From Escherichia phage 132, in the sequence record MZ417521: 64,000 bases of DNA, one strand, 5' to 3'. This document shows, piece after piece, positions 2,906 to 54,052 of the stretch. The notes under the pieces are model-generated. The model saw only the letters and a program-made list of their open reading frames with translations. It searched no databases and had not been told where the DNA came from. The first letter of the stretch is position 1. Each line of letters starts with the position of its first letter. Position numbers and translations under genes: made by a program.

Positions 2906-3910
2906 TTAACTTACCAATTCAATCCAAGCCGGACGAAGTACATCTTGTACCATTTTAACCAATTCCTTTTTAATCAAAGAAGGATTATCCGCTTGAGTTA
3001 GAGTAATACCTTCACGAGAAGTTTCTTCCAAAATATCTTGAACAGTTAGCCCCATCACCTTTCCAAAATCCTTCGGACCAATTTCGCCAATTTTAGAAAT
3101 AACGTTATTTACTCGGTTCAGTGTAACGTAGCAAGCTAAAATTCCCAGCAATTTATTATCAGCTTCTGACAACTCAACTTTAGCTTTAATAGGCTTATCA
3201 GACTTTTTCTTTTCACTAAATTTAGAGTTCTTGCATTTAATCGCTACGCGATTGCCATTAGGCATCCAAGAAGGATAACAAGGTTTCAATACATATCCTT
3301 CAGCGGTAAATACTTCGCCTTTTGCTTCGGCATTCCAAACACATTTATTTGCATCAACTAATCCAGCATGGCCTACTGTAAAATTATAATCTTGGACGAC
3401 AGAATCTAAATCATTTGGCAATTTAATAAGCTCTTCAAATTTACCGCGACCCAAAAGTGGAGCCATTTTAAATTTAAATGTATTACAGAATGATTCCATC
3501 ATATAATCATCGACATAAGTTACATCACCACTTTCTGTAGTAACAATAATGTCAAATACATAAAAATCTTTATCACCATAATCGACATTCTTCTGAATGC
3601 CAGGTCCAGCGAATTCACCAAAGACTTGATAAGATACAACTGCTGAAGTTTCCATAATATCTTGTACTGCTTTAATGGAATCAGCGTAATTCTTTAGAAT
3701 AATTTCATACCCAAAGAAATCTTCAGCAGGAAGAATCGGTCCAGTACGTTTAGCACAAGTTGCTTTATCGCGTTCAATAATCAGTGAGAAATTTGTGCCA
3801 TGAATCTTTTCACGAGCTACCCATTCGCCGCCAGTCAATCCTAAACTATAAAGTTTTTCAATGAATTTAGAATTGTAATGATTTTCAAGACTGCTATACT
3901 TTTTAAACAT
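2906..3910 (-). CDS. rnlB: RNA ligase 2 (Rnl2)
   Basis: 334 aa; [21 protein letters not shown]-terminus and KIHGTN nucleotidyltransferase motif I match T4 Rnl2. Confidence 0.93.
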
Positions 3911-17072: not shown

Positions 17073-19128
17073 ACATTTTGAACTTTTTAGACATTCCGTT
17101 GATGTTAACCAAAGAAGCCAAGATTTGAGAAACTTCGTTTTCCTCTTCTTTTGATTCTTCTACAAGGAATTGATTAAATCCAGCCATTGGACGAACTTCA
17201 CCAGTTTCCATTAGATGGTCGCCATCATATACCGATTCTTCTAATTGTTCAGAAGGAGGAACGATTGTGCCTTCGATTAGATACTTGTTATAAGCAGTTT
17301 CTTTCATCATGTACGTACTCACTTTATTAATCTTCAGCAAAATTCCACGCGGTAAAATAACTTCAGCTTCTGATGGAAATCCTGATAAATGTCCTGGAAC
17401 GATAACTTTGATTCGCTCAGCTCCTTTAATTACCATACCCACGCTAGTTTCAGCATCTTCATTCGCATAAGCAGAGTGACTGCCCATATGCATCAAATCT
17501 TCAGCATCAACTGAACCTTCTCCTTCACCAGAAAATACTGTGCCGGAATCATCTAGGGCCATATAGTTTTTACCATACTCACCGAAGATATTTGGTTTAA
17601 GCGATGTGGATACGAAGTTCTTGAAGTAGAACATTTTATTTTCAATGTTATGACGCAAAGTTTTAAAGGTAACTTCTTGCCCACGATAAAGAGTAGTTCC
17701 TGGAGGAAGAACAGAACCTTTAGCAAATGCAGAATCCAACGTCTCGATGTGTTTAATAGCTCGTTCCATATATTCTTCACGGGTAGAATCAGGTTTACCT
17801 AAAAGGAACGAGTTCATTTCAACATATGAATCTGCACAATAATCTTCAATTACATCAGATTCAGCTTGAGTTAATCCTTTTGGAGTTACTTCGGTGCTTG
17901 CGTATTCATATGCCTGAGCGGCAGATTCATTAATCAATTTATAAATGCCATTCATGACAAATTGAATAATAGCTGTCTTTTCATCTGGTGTAGCTTTAGA
18001 ACCTTTAACTAAATCATTGATAATTTTCTTAATAACATCAAAGCTATTAGAAATATTAATGTCAGCAAGATCGCTTAAAATTTTATCAGTTTTATAATCA
18101 AAGAATTCTTTATTCTTTAAATATTCTTGAGAACCTTGATATGTTATATCGCTCTGCAACTTGATAGATGGATCACGTAAACGTGCATGGGCTAATGCAA
18201 TATGATTTCGGAAACTTTCTAGTTCATAATCGTTAGATTTAAAACGAGAAGCACTTCTCATACCACCGATAGCTCCTTTGCTAAAGTTTGAACCAATCTG
18301 AATAACGCCAGAGTTCATCGGACCTTCTGCTTTATATACCGGAACTTTAGATTCAAACTCTTGATATTTCTTAGCAGCGAAGCTATCACCCTGAAGTGAA
18401 GCATCAACAGTAGAATATTGAGCTTGTGCTGCTAATCGACGACTAATTTTAGTTTTCTGAATAACAGCTTGATCCGTGCGCTTATCATTTTCTAAAGCAA
18501 TAGAAGCAGCAACAGCGACAGCTTTAGGAACAGCATTACCTGTTTTAACGTCTACATAAACATCACCAACCTTTGATTCAACTTTTGTGAATAACTCAGT
18601 TGAAATAGGAGGTACACCTGGAATGTCTTCTAAATTGGCATTTTTACGGTAAACCATAATATATGCATATTTCTTATCATAGTCCCAGATTTCCTTTAAA
18701 AGAACATATCGACCTGCTCCTTTAGTACGTACTAAACGGTCGGCAATAACTTGCATTTGACGAGCTGCACCATTTGTTTTACTCTTTAGTACGCGGAATA
18801 AGCATGCGTCAATTTTATATTGTTTCATTGTTTGAAGAGCAGTATCAAAAACGGCATTAATGACACCAATTGGATTTCCACCCAAGTTTCTAAGTTTAAC
18901 TAATGATAGTTTCTCATTAACACCTATCATTACGATATGCATCATTTTATCGCCTGGCTTAACGTTTTTATTTGTATCACCACCAGAGGTGTATGTACAA
19001 AATCTAAATCCAGGAAGCACACTTTCTTCACCGGCTTGAATAGCAAAAATTTGAGGTATTTTATGCTTAGGATTTAAGTTAACAACCGGCGCCGAAGCGC
19101 CGTCAAATAATTCTGTAATAAGTTCCAT
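17071..19128 (-). CDS. Alt-family ADP-ribosyltransferase paralog, capsid-packaged internal protein type
   Basis: 685 aa; N-terminus MELITELFD... parallels the adjacent Alt; C-terminal R-S-E triad (LYRGQ, VSTSL, EAEVILPRG). Confidence 0.85.
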   Translation of the reverse strand: MELITELFDGASAPVVNLNPKHKIPQIFAIQAGEESVLPGFRFCTYTSGGDTNKNVKPGDKMMHIVMIGVNEKLSLVKLRNLGGNPIGVINAVFDTALQTMKQYKIDACLFRVLKSKTNGAARQMQVIADRLVRTKGAGRYVLLKEIWDYDKKYAYIMVYRKNANLEDIPGVPPISTELFTKVESKVGDVYVDVKTGNAVPKAVAVAASIALENDKRTDQAVIQKTKISRRLAAQAQYSTVDASLQGDSFAAKKYQEFESKVPVYKAEGPMNSGVIQIGSNFSKGAIGGMRSASRFKSNDYELESFRNHIALAHARLRDPSIKLQSDITYQGSQEYLKNKEFFDYKTDKILSDLADINISNSFDVIKKIINDLVKGSKATPDEKTAIIQFVMNGIYKLINESAAQAYEYASTEVTPKGLTQAESDVIEDYCADSYVEMNSFLLGKPDSTREEYMERAIKHIETLDSAFAKGSVLPPGTTLYRGQEVTFKTLRHNIENKMFYFKNFVSTSLKPNIFGEYGKNYMALDDSGTVFSGEGEGSVDAEDLMHMGSHSAYANEDAETSVGMVIKGAERIKVIVPGHLSGFPSEAEVILPRGILLKINKVSTYMMKETAYNKYLIEGTIVPPSEQLEESVYDGDHLMETGEVRPMAGFNQFLVEESKEEENEVSQILASLVNINGMSKKFKM

Positions 19129-19131
19129 GAT

Positions 19132-21228
19132 TTATCCTTGAACGAACTTGTAAGGCATGTTTGTAATATCTATGCAAGACGCAATAATTCCGAGAGATGA
19201 TTCTGCTTTCTGTTTAACATTTGATGAAACAAATGATGCAAAGTCAACTCTGTCTTCTATTTCAATATCACCTGTCATTGCAACCAATTCACCAGTTTCC
19301 ATTAAATGGTCTCCATCATAGATTACCGATTCGGTGAGCTCTTCCGTGGTCATAACTTCAGCTTGAATGAGTTTTGTATTATTAGATGTTGTTCCGTCAT
19401 TATTAGAAGCATCAGTTATTTTATTAACCTTGACCATCAATCCGCGTGGTAGAATAACTTCAGCTTCTGTTGCTATTCCGAGACTTCCTGGATATACAAC
19501 ATTAACTTTATGAGCTCCATCAATTGCCCATCCTATTTGAACTTTAACGTATTCAGGATTTTCTTTATACGCTCTTATTTCGTTTGGATTAATAGTTATT
19601 CCTTCTTCATTTTTATCAACTGTTAATTCATTGCGAGCTTCTGGTTCTAAAAGACCAATACCAGCATGTGTGATTCCAAAACGTCCAAAAATGATAGGAG
19701 TTAAAGAAGTAGATACAAAATTTCTGAAGTAGAACACTTTATTTTTAACTAAAGCTTCGTATATAGGAGCAGTCATACTCTGAGCACGATAAACTGTAAT
19801 GCCTTCTGGTATACGATCACCATTTTCAAAAGCAGAATCTAAATTAGTTATAGCAGCTTCAATTTCTTTTTCACTCATTACTTCATAACGTTCTGGATCA
19901 TAACGACCCAAAAGAAGATTATTGATGTCAGTATACCCTGATCCACAGTATTCTCTAATACCTCTCTTTTGTGATGGAGTATATTTAGAACCATCACGAG
20001 CGATTGTAATATCAATCATAGGACCAGCTCCTACGCCAGAGAAACTGTATATCATTCGTTTAAGAAATTTAGTTTTTGCTGCGTTCCAGGAATTTTTAGT
20101 TATTTCTTCCCAGACTTCATCTGGTTGTCCTTTACGATTTTTATTGTGTTTAGCAAGCCAACTATCTTTGTATTCATCAAAAAGTGAATTAACTGCTGCT
20201 GCGTATTTTTCTAAACATTTTATTGAGGTAGTTGGCTCATTTTTAATAGCATGTAGAATTGTATCTTTAATTTTTTCAGAAACTTCACCAACCCGACTCA
20301 GCGGAAAGAATTTATAATCATAATGAAGTTCATCTGCCGTTCCTTCAGCAATAATTTTTGCTGCCTTTGTTTTAGAAGCTAATGAATTAATTCCAATTTT
20401 CATTTCTTCTGCTTCGGGAATTAAAGGTGCAGTAGCTGGTTTATTAAAATTAGCTGCTGTAGATTCATACTTCTGGAATAATTCACTTTCAAATCTAGAA
20501 GATTCCAATGACTGACTTTGTGCAATTGCTCTACGGGAAATTTTAACTTTAGTAATAACAGCTTGGTCAGAACGCTTATCATTTTCTTGTGCAATTGATG
20601 CTGCAATTGCCTCATTTTTAGTTACTTGGGCTCCAGTATCTTTATTGATATAAACATCGCCGACCTTCGATTCAACTTTAGTAAAGAGCTCGGTACTAAT
20701 TTCCGGAACTCCTGGAATGTCTTCTAGTGATACGTTTTTGCGATGTATAAGAATATATGCATACTTTTTATCATAATCCCAGAGTTCCTTAAGAAGGACG
20801 TATCTGCCACCTGAACGACTACGGATAAGTCTATCAGCAATAACTTGAATTTGTCGAGCTTGACCAGCGGTTTTAGACTTAAGAATACGGAGCATACAAG
20901 CATCAATTTTATATTGACGCATTGTTTGCATTGCAACAGTAAAAACTGAATTGATATAATTAATTGGGCTTGGACCGAGACCTTTTAATTTAGCAATTGA
21001 ACCTTTAGCAGTTAATGTAAAAGGAACAATGTGCATCATTTTATCGCCCATCTTTAAATCACGGTTAGTATCACCTCCAGATGTATAGGTACATAAACGA
21101 AAGCCTGGTTGCTCAATTGCGTCATCAACATGAACTGAAAAAATTTGCGGTATTTTCTTCTTTGGATTTAAGTTTGTAATCGGAAGAGTAGTATCTTCGT
21201 CAAATAATTCTGTAATAAGTTCCATCAT
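19132..21228 (-). CDS. alt: Alt ADP-ribosyltransferase (injected; modifies host RNA polymerase alpha in T4)
   Basis: 698 aa (697 from second Met); R-S-E triad (VYRAQ, VSTSL, EAEVILPRG); adjacent to gene 30 as in T4. Confidence 0.88.
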   Translation of the reverse strand: MMELITELFDEDTTLPITNLNPKKKIPQIFSVHVDDAIEQPGFRLCTYTSGGDTNRDLKMGDKMMHIVPFTLTAKGSIAKLKGLGPSPINYINSVFTVAMQTMRQYKIDACMLRILKSKTAGQARQIQVIADRLIRSRSGGRYVLLKELWDYDKKYAYILIHRKNVSLEDIPGVPEISTELFTKVESKVGDVYINKDTGAQVTKNEAIAASIAQENDKRSDQAVITKVKISRRAIAQSQSLESSRFESELFQKYESTAANFNKPATAPLIPEAEEMKIGINSLASKTKAAKIIAEGTADELHYDYKFFPLSRVGEVSEKIKDTILHAIKNEPTTSIKCLEKYAAAVNSLFDEYKDSWLAKHNKNRKGQPDEVWEEITKNSWNAAKTKFLKRMIYSFSGVGAGPMIDITIARDGSKYTPSQKRGIREYCGSGYTDINNLLLGRYDPERYEVMSEKEIEAAITNLDSAFENGDRIPEGITVYRAQSMTAPIYEALVKNKVFYFRNFVSTSLTPIIFGRFGITHAGIGLLEPEARNELTVDKNEEGITINPNEIRAYKENPEYVKVQIGWAIDGAHKVNVVYPGSLGIATEAEVILPRGLMVKVNKITDASNNDGTTSNNTKLIQAEVMTTEELTESVIYDGDHLMETGELVAMTGDIEIEDRVDFASFVSSNVKQKAESSLGIIASCIDITNMPYKFVQG

Positions 21229-21248
21229 ATCCTCTCTAGTGTTTATTC

Positions 21249-21256
21249 TATTTATA
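21249..21256 (-). promoter_or_regulatory. Late promoter TATAAATA (minus strand) upstream of alt
   Basis: Complement of plus-strand tatttata at 21249-21256. Confidence 0.5.
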
Positions 21257-26526: not shown

Positions 26527-26775
26527 TTACTTCAATGTTACCACAAAGTGACGAACTGCTTTTCGCGCAGCAGAAGCCAAAGGCTTAGCATATTTAAGTT
26601 CATCTTTTTCCTGAAGCTCAGCAGCTAATGCAGTTTGAGCAGGATTCAGATGTTTGAAATAACGCAGGATTTCAAGAGCTTCGGCTTCAACATCAATAGA
26701 TGCGCCATAGTTTTCGTGACCATTATTCCATGCGTTTCGTTGCAGTTCAAGAGCGTGTTGTAATTGTTTAATCAT
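26527..26775 (-). CDS. rIII: rIII lysis-inhibition accessory protein
   Basis: 82 aa, same as T4 rIII. Confidence 0.9.
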   Translation of the reverse strand: MIKQLQHALELQRNAWNNGHENYGASIDVEAEALEILRYFKHLNPAQTALAAELQEKDELKYAKPLASAARKAVRHFVVTLK

Positions 26776-26922: not shown

Positions 26923-27258
26923 TCACTTATAAAGACACGGAATAGCTTTATAGTGACAAGTAACGAATTTTTGTTTAATTTCTTTTGGCTGCTTAAGACC
27001 CAGAGCTACAAAAGGATGCGGAACATTTCGAATTTGACCAACTGGAAGAGAAGTCAAATCACCAACTTCGCAGAAACCTTCAGGAACATCAGGACCGACA
27101 GAGTGAACTACACACAGTTCAGGAACTTCACCTTGAACACGTTTACCGATAATAAGTCCTGATTCTGTAACTTCTTCATCACCGGCTTGTGCAGGTTCAG
27201 AAACTAAAATAACATATTCACCGACAGCACGAATTGGTAGCTGTTGTACTTCAGACAT
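26923..27258 (-). CDS. 31: Co-chaperonin gp31 (GroES-like)
   Basis: 111 aa, same as T4 gp31. Confidence 0.93.
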
Positions 27259-27314
27259 CGTTTTTCCTTTTTGTTAACAGATGAATTAATAATAACAAAT
27301 AATTCTTAAAGCAT

Positions 27315-27622
27315 TTATTTACCAATAAATTGGAGCAAATGCTCAACTTTCATACCATTAACGGAAATCAATTTGTCAATAGAAAAACCTCGCCATGCAC
27401 CAAGTTCAACATCAAATACTGGAATCATATCAGTAGATTCTTTCCGAGTAGATTCAGTCAATTTACCAGTTTGCATGGTTGGCATAAAGTCAGCATCGCG
27501 AGTACCTTTCATAACACGAATAGTACCATCAGACTTTTCAAAAACTACGTTTGAAACACCATGGACAATTTAGTTTTCAAAATTTCACGAATTGCTACTT
27601 TTTGTTCAGTCGTCAGTTTCAT
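27315..27622 (-). pseudogene. Gene 31.1-like ORF split by an apparent -1 frameshift
   Basis: 25-aa N-terminal piece (27545..27622, MKLTTEQKVAIREILKTKLSMVFQT) and 65-aa body (27315..27512) whose frame is open upstream to 27569; the pieces overlap. Confidence 0.45.
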
Positions 27623-27859
27623 TTATTTACCTATTACAGTTTTAATATGAGTTGTTCCACGTTCTTTAAGAGTGGAAAGTAATTTTTGGCATTTTTCTAA
27701 ATCAGATTTCCAACTATGTGGTCTATCAATACAAACCCAGTTTGACTTATAATACTGCTTCCATTTAGAGAAAAAATACTTCTTATACTCTACAGCAAAT
27801 GAAATGTTCTCGTTGGAATAAGAACTAATTGCTGTGAGCTGTACCAAACGAAATTTCAT
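27623..27859 (-). CDS. Hypothetical protein at the T4 31.2 position
   Basis: 78-aa ORF. Confidence 0.65.
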   Translation of the reverse strand: MKFRLVQLTAISSYSNENISFAVEYKKYFFSKWKQYYKSNWVCIDRPHSWKSDLEKCQKLLSTLKERGTTHIKTVIGK

Positions 27860-28440
27860 TATTCACCACAGAATTCGTTGATATTTTCCCAGTTTAACTT
27901 ATTTAAGTTTTTCTTAGGAACATTAAACACTTCAATACCTGCATTTCGCAGAATATCATCCCAGCCAGGTTTATTTTTATCGTATGTTTCACAATAAACC
28001 AGCTTTTTAATTCCAGATTGAGCTATTGCTTTTGCACAATCTGGGCAAGGAGAAAGTGTTACATACATAGTAGCACCTTCAATTGAAGAACCGTTTCGTG
28101 CAGCAAACAAAATCGCATTTAGTTCAGCATGAATTTCATTTTTAGACGACCATTCAGAGTGCGCGCTACGATGTTCTTTCGCCAATACAAAACGATCAGT
28201 TGAACCAAACGATACACATTCAGGCTTATGACCTTGAATGATAGTATGTTTAGGCTTATTCAGCAACCAACCTTGCTCAGCAGCATAATCACAGCAATTC
28301 ACACCACCTGCAGGCGAACCATTATATCCAGTAGAAATAATACGTCCATTCTTTTCAATTACTGCTCCTACCTTCCAGGAGCAACATTTTGATTCTTGTG
28401 ATACTAAATATGCAATTTGAAGTACTGTACTCGCTTTCAT
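27859..28440 (-). CDS. cd: dCMP deaminase
   Basis: 193 aa; zinc-binding HAELNAI and PCPDCAKAI motifs. Confidence 0.95.
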   Translation of the reverse strand: MKASTVLQIAYLVSQESKCCSWKVGAVIEKNGRIISTGYNGSPAGGVNCCDYAAEQGWLLNKPKHTIIQGHKPECVSFGSTDRFVLAKEHRSAHSEWSSKNEIHAELNAILFAARNGSSIEGATMYVTLSPCPDCAKAIAQSGIKKLVYCETYDKNKPGWDDILRNAGIEVFNVPKKNLNKLNWENINEFCGE

Positions 28441-50114: not shown

Positions 50115-50804
50115 ATGGCTGATTTAAAAGTAGGTTCAACAACTGGAGGCTCTGTCATTTGGCATCAAGGAAATTTTCCATTGAATCCAGCCGGTGACGA
50201 TGTACTCTATAAATCATTTAAAATATATTCAGAATACAATAAACCACAGGCAACTGATAACGATTTCGTTTCTAAAGCTAATGGTGGCACAAAGTCTCAA
50301 GGTTTCCAAAAAGAAGTAGAATTTAAAGAAGGCGTTAAGATTTCTGCAACGTTTTCTGGCGGTTCAGACCTGAATGGGTTATATTCTGGCAATGGAGATG
50401 GAGCTTCCAGAGAAAAAGCTAACATGGATTTACGTTCATGGTACGGCATTGGTATTTGGAACACATGCACAAGCGATGGGATCCAGGGACGCACAATCTG
50501 GTTTAATGCCAGGAGTGGTAAAGTTGAAACAGTTGGCAATATTGTTTCTGGCCAACAAGTTATTTCTAATGCTTCAGTACCGACCGGCCCAGCACACTTA
50601 ACTCGCAAAGATTATGTCGATGGAGCAATAAATATTGTTACAGCAAACGCAAACTCTAGAGTATTACGCTCTGGAGATACTATGACAGGAAATTTAACTG
50701 CGCCAAACCTTTTTTCACAGAATCCTGCATCTCAACCCTCGCATGTTCCACGATTTGATCAAATTGTTATTAAGGATTCTGTTCAAGATTTCGGCTATTA
50801 TTAA
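50115..50804 (+). CDS. 36: Long tail fibre distal connector gp36
   Basis: 229 aa. Confidence 0.92.
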   Translation: MADLKVGSTTGGSVIWHQGNFPLNPAGDDVLYKSFKIYSEYNKPQATDNDFVSKANGGTKSQGFQKEVEFKEGVKISATFSGGSDLNGLYSGNGDGASREKANMDLRSWYGIGIWNTCTSDGIQGRTIWFNARSGKVETVGNIVSGQQVISNASVPTGPAHLTRKDYVDGAINIVTANANSRVLRSGDTMTGNLTAPNLFSQNPASQPSHVPRFDQIVIKDSVQDFGYY

Positions 50805-50812
50805 GAGGACTT

Positions 50813-53800
50813 ATGGCTACTTTAAAACAAATACAATTTAAAAGAAGCAAAACCGCAGGAGCACGTCCTGCCGCTTCAGTATTAGCCGAAGGTGAATTGG
50901 CTATAAACTTAAAAGACCGTGTACTTTTTACTAAAGACGATCAAGGGAATATCATTGATCTGGGTTTTGCTAAGGGTGGTAGTATTGACGGGAATGTTAT
51001 TCATATAGGAAACTATAATCAAACCGGTGATTATGCCCTGAAAGGTACTTTTACCCAAACAGGTAGTTATGCGGCATCCGGAAGTATAACAGCAAATGGT
51101 GATATTACTGCAAAAACCCGTTTAATGACAGATAATGGTGAAGTTCTTGTACGAGGTACAGGAACCACTCATGTTCGATTCCAGGATTTGGCTGATGCAC
51201 GTGAAAGAGGCATAATTTATTCACAATCACGCCCAGGAAATACCAAGCAAATCTTGAACGTTCGCGTCCAGGATTACGCTAATTCAACATCTAATATTTT
51301 TGCATTCAACGGTGATGGTTTATTTTATGCCCCATCTATTTCCGGCGGAACATCAGTAAAATCTCCAGTAATTTATACCAATACTGTTAATACAGACAGT
51401 AAGAATATTGGCGATTACGATATATCTTCATTAGCAAATAATAATTCTGACACAGATAAAAACTATTTGCGCATTGTACGTACCGATCCAGCGGCCGCAA
51501 TGCTCCATGAAATTTGCGAAAATAACGGCATAAGTTGGTATTCGGGTTCGACTCCAACTGAGTATATGTTGTCATTTTCTTATTCTGGTGGGCTTCAAGC
51601 AGGCCATTCAATTGCAGTAGGTATGGAATCAATGCCTATGACATATTCAGCCTTAGGTAAAGGTTCTATTGCTCTTGGCGATAATGATACCGGGCTAAAA
51701 TGGCATCAGGATGGATATTTCTATACAGTAAACAACGGAACAAGAACTTTCATCTATGGTCCAGGAGAAACGCAAAGCCTTAGAAAAATGGTTATGGCTT
51801 ATTCTCCAGATGGGCTTCTTATGACAACGCCACCGACAGAAAACTATGCTTTGGCTACTGTTGTTACTTACCATGATAATAACGCGTTTGGAGATGGTCA
51901 GACTCTTTTAGGATATTACCAAGGTGGTAATTATCATCATTATTTCCGCGGTAAGGGTACTACAAACATTAATACTCACGGCGGTTTATTAGTTACTCCA
52001 GGCAATATTGACGTTATTGGTGGTTCGGTTAATATTGATGGTCGTAATAATGCTTCTACTCTGATGTTTAGAGGTAACACAACTGGTAGCAGTTCAGTTG
52101 ATAATATGACAATTTCTGTATGGGGTAATACGTTTACTAATCCTAGTGTAGGTAATCGTAAAAACGTCATGGAAATTTCTGATGCAACTAGTTGGATGAG
52201 CTATATTCAAAGACTTACAACAGGTGAAGTAGAAATGAACGTTAACGGTTCATTTGAATCATCTGGTGTTACTGCTGGACATAGAGGAGTTCACACAACA
52301 GGTGAAATTTCATCTGGAGCAGTGAATGCGCTTCGCATTTGGAATGCAGATTATGGAGTCATTTTCCGTCGTTCAGAAAACAGTCTTCATATTATTCCGA
52401 CTGCTTACGGTGAAGGTAAAAATGGAAATATCGGTCCACTTCGCCCGTTCCGTATGGACCTTGATACAGGTAAAGTAAGTATTCCTAATATGGATACTAC
52501 TAATTTGACTATGAACTCAAATGGTTCTATTAAATTTACTGGTCATGGTAATGGTACCGAGCTGTATATTAATCAGTATGGGCAAGCGGCACCGATTTAT
52601 CAAGAAATTAATAATGATTCCGCTTCTGCTTATATTCCAATTATAAAACAGAAATACTTAAATGGCGGTATAATGTGGTCTATGGGAACAGAACTTAATT
52701 CCGGTGATTTTGTAATCCATAGAATTAATGCCGCCGGTGATGAAAACCAAATTATTAAATTTGATAGTAACTGCGTTCCGCATTTCCCGGATAACGTGCT
52801 GGTTGGCGGTGATATTAACATGAAAGGCGCGATGACTTTTGACGCCGGACGTTTAGGATCACGAGATTATTTTAAATTTAACCATTGGGGTGATAGTAAT
52901 AATGCTCGTGATAACATCATCCAGTTAGAAGATAGTCAAGGCGCCCATTTTTCCACTGAACGTACTTTAGCGACTGGTGCAATTAAAACTCGTTTCTTTG
53001 GCGAAACATTCACTGATGGTACATTATACCTAAATCAGATGAATAATAGCTCTGAACGATTCCATATCAATAATTGGGGAAATTCAGAAGTTGGTCGCGC
53101 GGCAGTGATGGAAGTCGGTGATTCCAAAGGTTATCACTTCTATACGGAACGCAGGACAGATAACAGTTTGACGTTTGATGTTGCTGGCGATTTTACTGTG
53201 CATGGATCTTCCGGGATTACTATCAAAACCTCTACTGGTGCTCGCCATGTTTGGTTTAGAGGTGATAGCGATATAGAAAAGGCTGTTATTTGGGCGACCA
53301 ATGATGGTATTTTACATATACGAAATAATTTTGGGGGTTCATTTAGTCATCACTTCCAGGGCGCAATGATTAAAGCGGGAGAGCGTGTTCCTTATGCCGG
53401 AGATCAAGGGCTTATTCGCGGTGAAGTTTCTGGTGGTGCTTATGTGGATTGGAGAGGCCGCCCTGCTGGTTTGTTGCTTGACTGTCAACAAAGCGTTGAT
53501 AGTGCTCATGCTATTTGGAAAGCGGTTGATTGGGGGCGTAACTACATCGCTGCTCTGGACGTTCATATGCCCGGTAATAGTAATAATACTGCAGCAGCGG
53601 TTCTCCATGTTCAGTCTGCTGATTATCAATTCCATGCAAGTGGAGAATTTCATGCCACTGGTAACGGAAGCTTTAACGATGTGTATATTCGTTCTGACCG
53701 TCGCCTTAAAGACAATATAGAAGATTATACAGGAAATGCAACTGATTTAATCGGTAAACTGAAAGTTAAAACCTACGATAAAGTTAAATCATTATCCGAC

Positions 53801-54046
53801 CGTGAAATTATCGGTCATGAGATCGGCATTATCGCACAGGATTTACAAGAAATATTACCAGAAGCGATTAATATTTCGAAAATTGGCAATCTTGATAAAC
53901 CAGACGAAGTTCTGACAATTTCTAACTCTGCTGTGAATGCTCTTTTAATTAAGGCCATTCAGGAAATGAGTGAAGAAATTAAAGAATTGAAAACGCCTTT
54001 CTTCACTAAAATTGCTCGCAAAATTGGTAAATACTTTAAATTCTAA
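50813..54046 (+). CDS. 37: Long tail fibre distal subunit gp37 with C-terminal autoproteolytic chaperone-type domain
   Basis: 1077 aa; C-terminal YIRSDRRLKDNIEDY matches the S-D-x-x-x-K self-cleavage signature of intramolecular chaperone domains. Confidence 0.93.
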   Translation: MATLKQIQFKRSKTAGARPAASVLAEGELAINLKDRVLFTKDDQGNIIDLGFAKGGSIDGNVIHIGNYNQTGDYALKGTFTQTGSYAASGSITANGDITAKTRLMTDNGEVLVRGTGTTHVRFQDLADARERGIIYSQSRPGNTKQILNVRVQDYANSTSNIFAFNGDGLFYAPSISGGTSVKSPVIYTNTVNTDSKNIGDYDISSLANNNSDTDKNYLRIVRTDPAAAMLHEICENNGISWYSGSTPTEYMLSFSYSGGLQAGHSIAVGMESMPMTYSALGKGSIALGDNDTGLKWHQDGYFYTVNNGTRTFIYGPGETQSLRKMVMAYSPDGLLMTTPPTENYALATVVTYHDNNAFGDGQTLLGYYQGGNYHHYFRGKGTTNINTHGGLLVTPGNIDVIGGSVNIDGRNNASTLMFRGNTTGSSSVDNMTISVWGNTFTNPSVGNRKNVMEISDATSWMSYIQRLTTGEVEMNVNGSFESSGVTAGHRGVHTTGEISSGAVNALRIWNADYGVIFRRSENSLHIIPTAYGEGKNGNIGPLRPFRMDLDTGKVSIPNMDTTNLTMNSNGSIKFTGHGNGTELYINQYGQAAPIYQEINNDSASAYIPIIKQKYLNGGIMWSMGTELNSGDFVIHRINAAGDENQIIKFDSNCVPHFPDNVLVGGDINMKGAMTFDAGRLGSRDYFKFNHWGDSNNARDNIIQLEDSQGAHFSTERTLATGAIKTRFFGETFTDGTLYLNQMNNSSERFHINNWGNSEVGRAAVMEVGDSKGYHFYTERRTDNSLTFDVAGDFTVHGSSGITIKTSTGARHVWFRGDSDIEKAVIWATNDGILHIRNNFGGSFSHHFQGAMIKAGERVPYAGDQGLIRGEVSGGAYVDWRGRPAGLLLDCQQSVDSAHAIWKAVDWGRNYIAALDVHMPGNSNNTAAAVLHVQSADYQFHASGEFHATGNGSFNDVYIRSDRRLKDNIEDYTGNATDLIGKLKVKTYDKVKSLSDREIIGHEIGIIAQDLQEILPEAINISKIGNLDKPDEVLTISNSAVNALLIKAIQEMSEEIKELKTPFFTKIARKIGKYFKF

Positions 54047-54052
54047 TAACAA

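Follow-up and report, generated by a model that had tools for sequence, protein, structure and literature searches.

A probable loss-of-function frameshift in gene 31.1 of Escherichia phage 132

Gene order and the two reading frames in the 31.1 slot

Escherichia phage 132 is a T4-like phage (Tequatrovirus) with a genome of 166,922 bp, and the window is the whole stretch of 64,000 nucleotides of this genome that was analysed (record MZ417521). On the minus strand of the window the gene order is cd (28440..27859), gene 31.2 (27859..27623), two small open reading frames (ORFs), gene 31 (27258..26923), and rIII (26775..26527). Gene 31.2 is intact, encodes 78 aa, and was identified by synteny with T4 31.2 and gp209 of phage DalCa and by its match to PHROG 2010 (E = 1e-40). 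Gene 31, which encodes the GroES-like co-chaperonin of 111 aa, is also intact and has its own strong Shine-Dalgarno sequence (AAGGA). In the annotated genomes of T4 and DalCa a single 309-nt gene, 31.1, fills the slot of the two small ORFs, and their position in phage 132, between 31.2 and gene 31 and downstream of cd, is that of T4 gp31.1. No second copy (paralogue) of 31.1 was found within the window.

The first of the two ORFs spans 25 codons (MKLTTEQKVAIREILKTKLSMVFQT; 27622..27545, minus strand) and matches QWY90580.1 of Escherichia phage 132 exactly. Its ATG adjoins the TAA of 31.2, an AGG lies 7 nt upstream of this ATG, and the frame is closed by a TAG, as an earlier note on this DNA had described when it reported a start directly after the upstream stop codon with a plausible ribosome-binding site. 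The second ORF (27512..27315, minus strand; 65 aa) is an exact match to QWY90579.1 of the same phage. It lies in the -1 frame relative to the first and stays open upstream to 27569, where a TAA at 27572-27570 closes the frame, so that the two frames overlap by 25 nt (27569..27545).

The proposal in the same note that the pieces read as one protein if joined was borne out by tblastn with an intact orthologue: residues 1-21 aligned to 27622..27560 and residues 22-102 to 27560..27318, both at 100% identity. Accordingly, codons 1-21 of the 25-codon ORF (27622..27560) are native and are followed by four out-of-frame codons (VFQT) and the TAG. The 3' part of the gene in its native frame (residues 22-102 and the stop) occupies 27560..27315, and the 65-aa ORF corresponds to native residues 38-102. 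The 25-aa and 65-aa ORFs are the two halves of a T4-type gene 31.1 and not a chance pair of ORFs, and the gene name given earlier agrees with the T4 annotation.

Searches with intact gp31.1 (tblastn) matched 1226 phage records of the Straboviridae, 1221 of which cover at least 80% of the protein. A single unbroken alignment was seen in all 60 rows sampled across the ranking of the 1226, and these unbroken matches reach phages of Klebsiella, Erwinia, Salmonella, Yersinia, Acinetobacter, and Aeromonas; homologues in other genera measure 100-111 aa. Phage 107, a sibling with the same locus-tag style, encodes an intact 102-aa protein. In phage 132, a single ORF of about 100-110 codons is replaced by 25 and 65 codons in two frames. 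Putting back the G discussed below yields a product that shares 99% identity with T4 gp31.1 and does not differ at all from the proteins of DalCa and several RB phages. Between the window and T4, 12 nucleotide differences within 31.1 change only one amino acid, and T4, T6, DalCa, and many others share the same 65 C-terminal residues. Judged from these alignments, the ancestral 31.1 is one ORF under purifying selection.

Many GenBank records label both 31.1 and 31.2 "tail fiber protein". For gp31.1 this label looks like a propagated misannotation, since in profile comparisons its match to PHROG 1086 (unknown function; 1e-47) is far stronger than that to the "tail fiber" PHROG 10657 (8e-11).

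The missing G and the question of sequencing error

The two-frame split of 31.1 results from a one-base deletion inside codon Gly22, at 27560-27559, where one G is gone from a run of three: ATGGGTGTT in relatives reads ATGGTGTT in the window. Pairwise alignment, megablast, and comparison of the loci all placed the lesion here. The alignment of the 31.1 region that the earlier note had proposed as a check was performed against DalCa, with T4 also compared, and the split was explained by the one missing G, which is the sole difference from DalCa across 131 nt. Approximately 500 Tequatrovirus records matched by megablast; none was 100% identical, and among the matches listed (about 100 of the approximately 500 records) the query was one base shorter than every one. 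A 37-nt probe over the mutant junction gave no match in the phage collection. The allele combines an indel not divisible by three, a premature stop, and the loss of conserved residues.

The alternative is that the phage truly carries GGG and an intact 31.1, and that the G was lost during sequencing or assembly. The position of the lesion within a homopolymer and the absence of the GG allele from about 500 isolate genomes, as well as from IMG/VR, JGI metagenomes, and GTDB genomes, speak for such an error. The mutant junction had no match in any of the last three collections, but these negatives say little because the IMG/VR control recovered only four intact copies of 31.1, and the IMG/VR negative therefore has no weight. 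Three-base runs are not error-prone on short-read platforms. Further, a Logan contig of run SRR14895627 (101 kb; locus L004), an independent assembly of raw reads, matched the window at 100% identity for 6198 nt and reproduced the deletion exactly, GG included. The reads of SRR14895627 are probably those behind the deposited phage 132 genome, and for this isolate the contig thus provides support from an independent assembler rather than from independent chemistry. Other strains from unrelated runs carry the same deletion, as described below.

When 99 DalCa genes were compared with the window by tblastn to assess sequence quality, 31.1 was the only one split across two frames at 100% identity. 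Four other flagged DalCa genes were merely divergent or absent in the window, and other isolated one-base indels relative to DalCa were intergenic or occurred in compensated pairs. Since an independent assembly as well as other strains and runs show the deletion, and since no further coding sequence among the 99 is split, we regard a sequencing or assembly error as very improbable. Among the three options that had been offered for the split (an inactivating indel, a sequencing error, or non-canonical recoding), the first is upheld by the loss of a G from GGG relative to every relative examined, and the other two, recoding being taken up below, are not.

The comparison with DalCa revealed other differences in the window. 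RNA ligase 2 (rnlB) is annotated as two coding sequences of 49 and 282 aa in the DalCa RefSeq record (L013:3217-4221) and is an intact 334-aa ORF in the window (2906-3910, minus strand); the DalCa case indicates that other Tequatrovirus records contain split small genes too. Two tandem Alt-like ADP-ribosyltransferase paralogues with about 68% nucleotide identity lie at approximately 18400-21250 (compare DalCa gp193 and gp194). The distal long-tail-fibre gene (the gp37 equivalent; approximately 50800-54050, plus strand) has about 39-62% protein identity to DalCa between flanks of 94-97% DNA identity, which suggests a swapped host-range module.

It is highly probable that 31.1 of phage 132 carries a genuine GGG to GG deletion, and that the result is loss of function in an accessory gene which, though conserved, is dispensable. 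The deletion would most likely have arisen by polymerase slippage in the short homopolymer, and the allele may persist since 31.1 would not be needed on the propagating host. The deletion also creates the palindrome CCATGG (an NcoI-type site; window 27558-27565), which the intact allele, CCATGGG, has only inside the longer run. A templated mutation at a quasi-palindrome was considered as a mechanism and rejected: CCATGG is created, but inspection revealed no longer inverted repeat around the deletion.

Predicted consequences for the protein and its neighbours

The reconstructed 102-aa protein matched Pfam PF10902 (WYL_2) at 73.2 bits (cut-off 26.7) over residues 13-86, and the 65-aa fragment scored 38.2 bits, its match being confined to positions 27-74 of the 74-position profile. 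Conservation across 35 aligned homologues peaks in the block G22...VFEK.DGT.R...TRD, and the stretch from the frameshift to Met38, which is lost, holds the invariant residues V27, F28, E29, K30, D32, and R36. The fold predicted with AlphaFold2 for an orthologue of 98% identity (mean pLDDT 82.9, pTM 0.74) has a helix at residues 5-19, β1 at 24-29, β2 at 35-41, a long loop, β3 at 66-71, β4 at 76-81, β5 at 85-88, and a helix at 93-100. According to this model the 25-aa product consists of nothing but the N-terminal helix, and two of the five barrel strands are missing from the 65-aa ORF. Without β1, most of β2, and the VFEK.DGT.R motif of the SH3/WYL/Sm-like barrel, the 65-aa fragment should not fold or function. 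No solved structure was found for gp31.1 by sequence, and NCBIfam gave no match.

Translation from the normal ATG would yield 21 native codons and four wrong ones before terminating at the TAG. The first start codon of the native frame downstream is Met38 (27512), 32 nt past this stop, and no Shine-Dalgarno sequence precedes it. Given this distance and the lack of a Shine-Dalgarno sequence, reinitiation would be weak at best, and at most a trace of the 65-residue C-terminal fragment would be expected. Based on the sequence and the structural model, 31.1 of phage 132 is most likely a null or near-null allele.

The alternative is that full-length gp31.1 is still made by a -1 shift or bypass in the overlap, or that the 65-aa piece is functional and is expressed by termination-reinitiation. 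The 25-nt overlap does offer an opportunity, as a -1 shift anywhere in 27569..27548 would rejoin the frames, and in one of the strains described below (SRR35361999) the stop codon and the ATG of the 65-aa ORF share bases (ATGA), which favours reinitiation. In phage 132, however, the stop and the ATG are separated by the 32 nt without a Shine-Dalgarno sequence, and the fragment is without the best-conserved motif and two of five strands. The observation in the earlier note that the overlap holds no canonical X XXY YYZ heptamer in phase proved correct: the sole heptamer, AAATTTT, is found at 27585, upstream of the stop in the -1 frame and out of phase. The 96 nt from the site folded no better than shuffled sequences (MFE -19.3 kcal/mol versus a mean of -18.1, z = -0.38). 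More than 1200 relatives have the gene as one ORF, and the two-frame layout is derived and recent, which would have left a recoding signal no chance to evolve. We consider recoding or a functional split extremely improbable.

Specific recoding mechanisms were rejected individually. Programmed -1 frameshifting was rejected for the lack of an in-phase slippery site, of a downstream stimulatory structure, and of a conserved two-frame layout. Bypassing in the style of gene 60 was rejected because inspection revealed no matched take-off and landing codons flanking the stop, and because the layout is recent and derived. Transcriptional slippage was rejected because the overlap holds no long run of A or T, and the T5 run (27544..27540, intact in the window) lies past the stop.

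The frameshift is expected to spare the neighbouring genes. Between the stop of 31.1 and gene 31, the sequence at 27313..27289 on the minus strand matches the MotA-box middle-promoter consensus (TGCTTTA-N12-TATTAT); this is a consensus match only, one of seven in the window where 2.4 are expected by chance. Such a site would permit transcription of gene 31 independently of 31.1. Since gene 31, the essential co-chaperonin gene, has its own ribosome-binding site in addition to this promoter-like site, no polar effect on it would be expected. Gene 31.2 should be unaffected, as it lies upstream of the lesion.

Recurrence in other strains and comparison with known systems

In an exact look-up, the 65-aa product was indexed in 39 blocks of a public assembly collection and found in at least ten places, all of those listed being Logan assemblies. 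The ten listed places fell into four groups. The first is the SRR14895627 contig described above, with GGG to GG. The second comprises seven ERR160... runs (L003, L006-L010, and L012), which account for seven of the ten places and represent one strain from one project; the sequence is identical across runs, differs from the window by 37 SNPs per 2.6 kb, and carries the same GGG to GG deletion. The third, SRR34430154 (L005:2891-3198), has this deletion as well, on another local haplotype; it differs from the window by 57 SNPs per 2.6 kb, has SNPs 3 nt and 41 nt from the run, and encodes the natural variant "GIS" rather than "GVS". In the fourth, SRR35361999 (L011:2891-3198), a further natural Tequatrovirus, GGG is kept and a T is deleted from the T5 run (T5 to T4 at the window-equivalent positions 27544-27540), 16 nt downstream of the GGG site. 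This yields a 37-codon ORF, the TGA of which overlaps the ATG of the 65-aa ORF.

The earlier note had held that the same two-ORF arrangement in other phages, as independent genes, would speak against a split gene. The arrangement does formally occur in the ERR160... strain and in SRR34430154. As a pair of independent genes it does not: these strains share the same derived frameshift in a gene that more than 1200 relatives carry as one ORF, and they are therefore no evidence for independent genes. Rather, it would appear that at least four strains, natural or laboratory, are viable without gp31.1, although the protein is encoded by one ORF in more than 1200 Straboviridae genomes; we base this view on what is generally known of T4 accessory genes and on the fact that these phages are viable. 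Our literature searches on gp31.1, DUF2693, and phage 132 retrieved no functional data.

The deletion in SRR34430154 could be shared by descent with that of phage 132, but this would require a conversion tract of less than about 45 nt, and the flanking SNPs suggest that independent recurrence is more likely. An identical G3 deletion occurring twice is more than simple slippage would predict, since the nearby and longer A5 and T5 runs should be hotter.

These observations raise the alternative that loss of 31.1 is adaptive, that is, that selection repeatedly favours 5' frameshifts; gp31.1 may, for instance, be sensed by a host defence, or this stand-alone WYL-like protein may be costly on some hosts. 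At least three events are apparently independent: GG on the V23 haplotype (the window and the ERR160... strain), GG on the I23 haplotype (SRR34430154), and T5 to T4 (SRR35361999). Selection would also fit with the 39 blocks in which the exact 65-aa product is indexed, and with the fact that the weak slippage site G3 was hit twice while the A5 run was unhit among the places listed. However, the look-up pools any disruption upstream of Met38 over all haplotypes that share the conserved C-terminus. With this ascertainment bias and a very large collection several alleles are expected, and the recurrence of 5' frameshifts may reflect ascertainment alone. Seven of the ten places trace to one strain from one project, and loss is rare: at most five of the 1226 isolate genomes are without a near-full-length copy. 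Literature on the function of gp31.1 or on escape mutants was not found. We consider selected loss unlikely; if true, it would imply a host-dependent cost or recognition of gp31.1 and provide a first functional handle on this protein.

The preferred reading, a genuine loss-of-function deletion in an accessory gene, mainly has consequences for annotation. QWY90579 (65 aa) and QWY90580 (25 aa), at present "hypothetical proteins", should become one frameshifted pseudogene.

T4 gene 31.1 (gp31.1, 102 aa; PF10902 WYL_2, formerly DUF2693; PHROG 1086) is the closest known system and is alike in position, Pfam assignment, and sequence. The gene of phage 132 differs from it in that the frame is broken after codon 21, so that its products would be limited to a peptide of 25 aa and, at best, the C-terminal 65 aa. 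The WYL sensor domains of BrxR, CapW, DriD, and PafBC are unlike gp31.1, which is a stand-alone protein of 102 aa without a DNA-binding or effector domain, and the matches of gp31.1 to WYL-domain and Hfq proteins (Sm/Hfq barrels) have sequence identities of only 1-13%. Programmed -1 sites, such as those in the tail assembly chaperone genes of tailed phages, resemble the locus in that the second of two overlapping ORFs is in the -1 frame; unlike them, 31.1 has no slippery heptamer, no stimulatory structure, and no conserved split.

Streisinger slippage produces homopolymer frameshifts in T-even phages and was classically mapped in T4 rII. The lesion in 31.1 is alike in that one base is lost from a mononucleotide run with a premature stop soon downstream, and in that a second allele lies in the nearby T5 run. 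It is unlike the simple Streisinger model in that the run is only three bases long, yet was hit recurrently on two haplotypes. The split is thus a frameshift of the known gene 31.1, of the classical homopolymer-slippage kind, and the only mildly unusual point is that 5' frameshifts in 31.1 recur.
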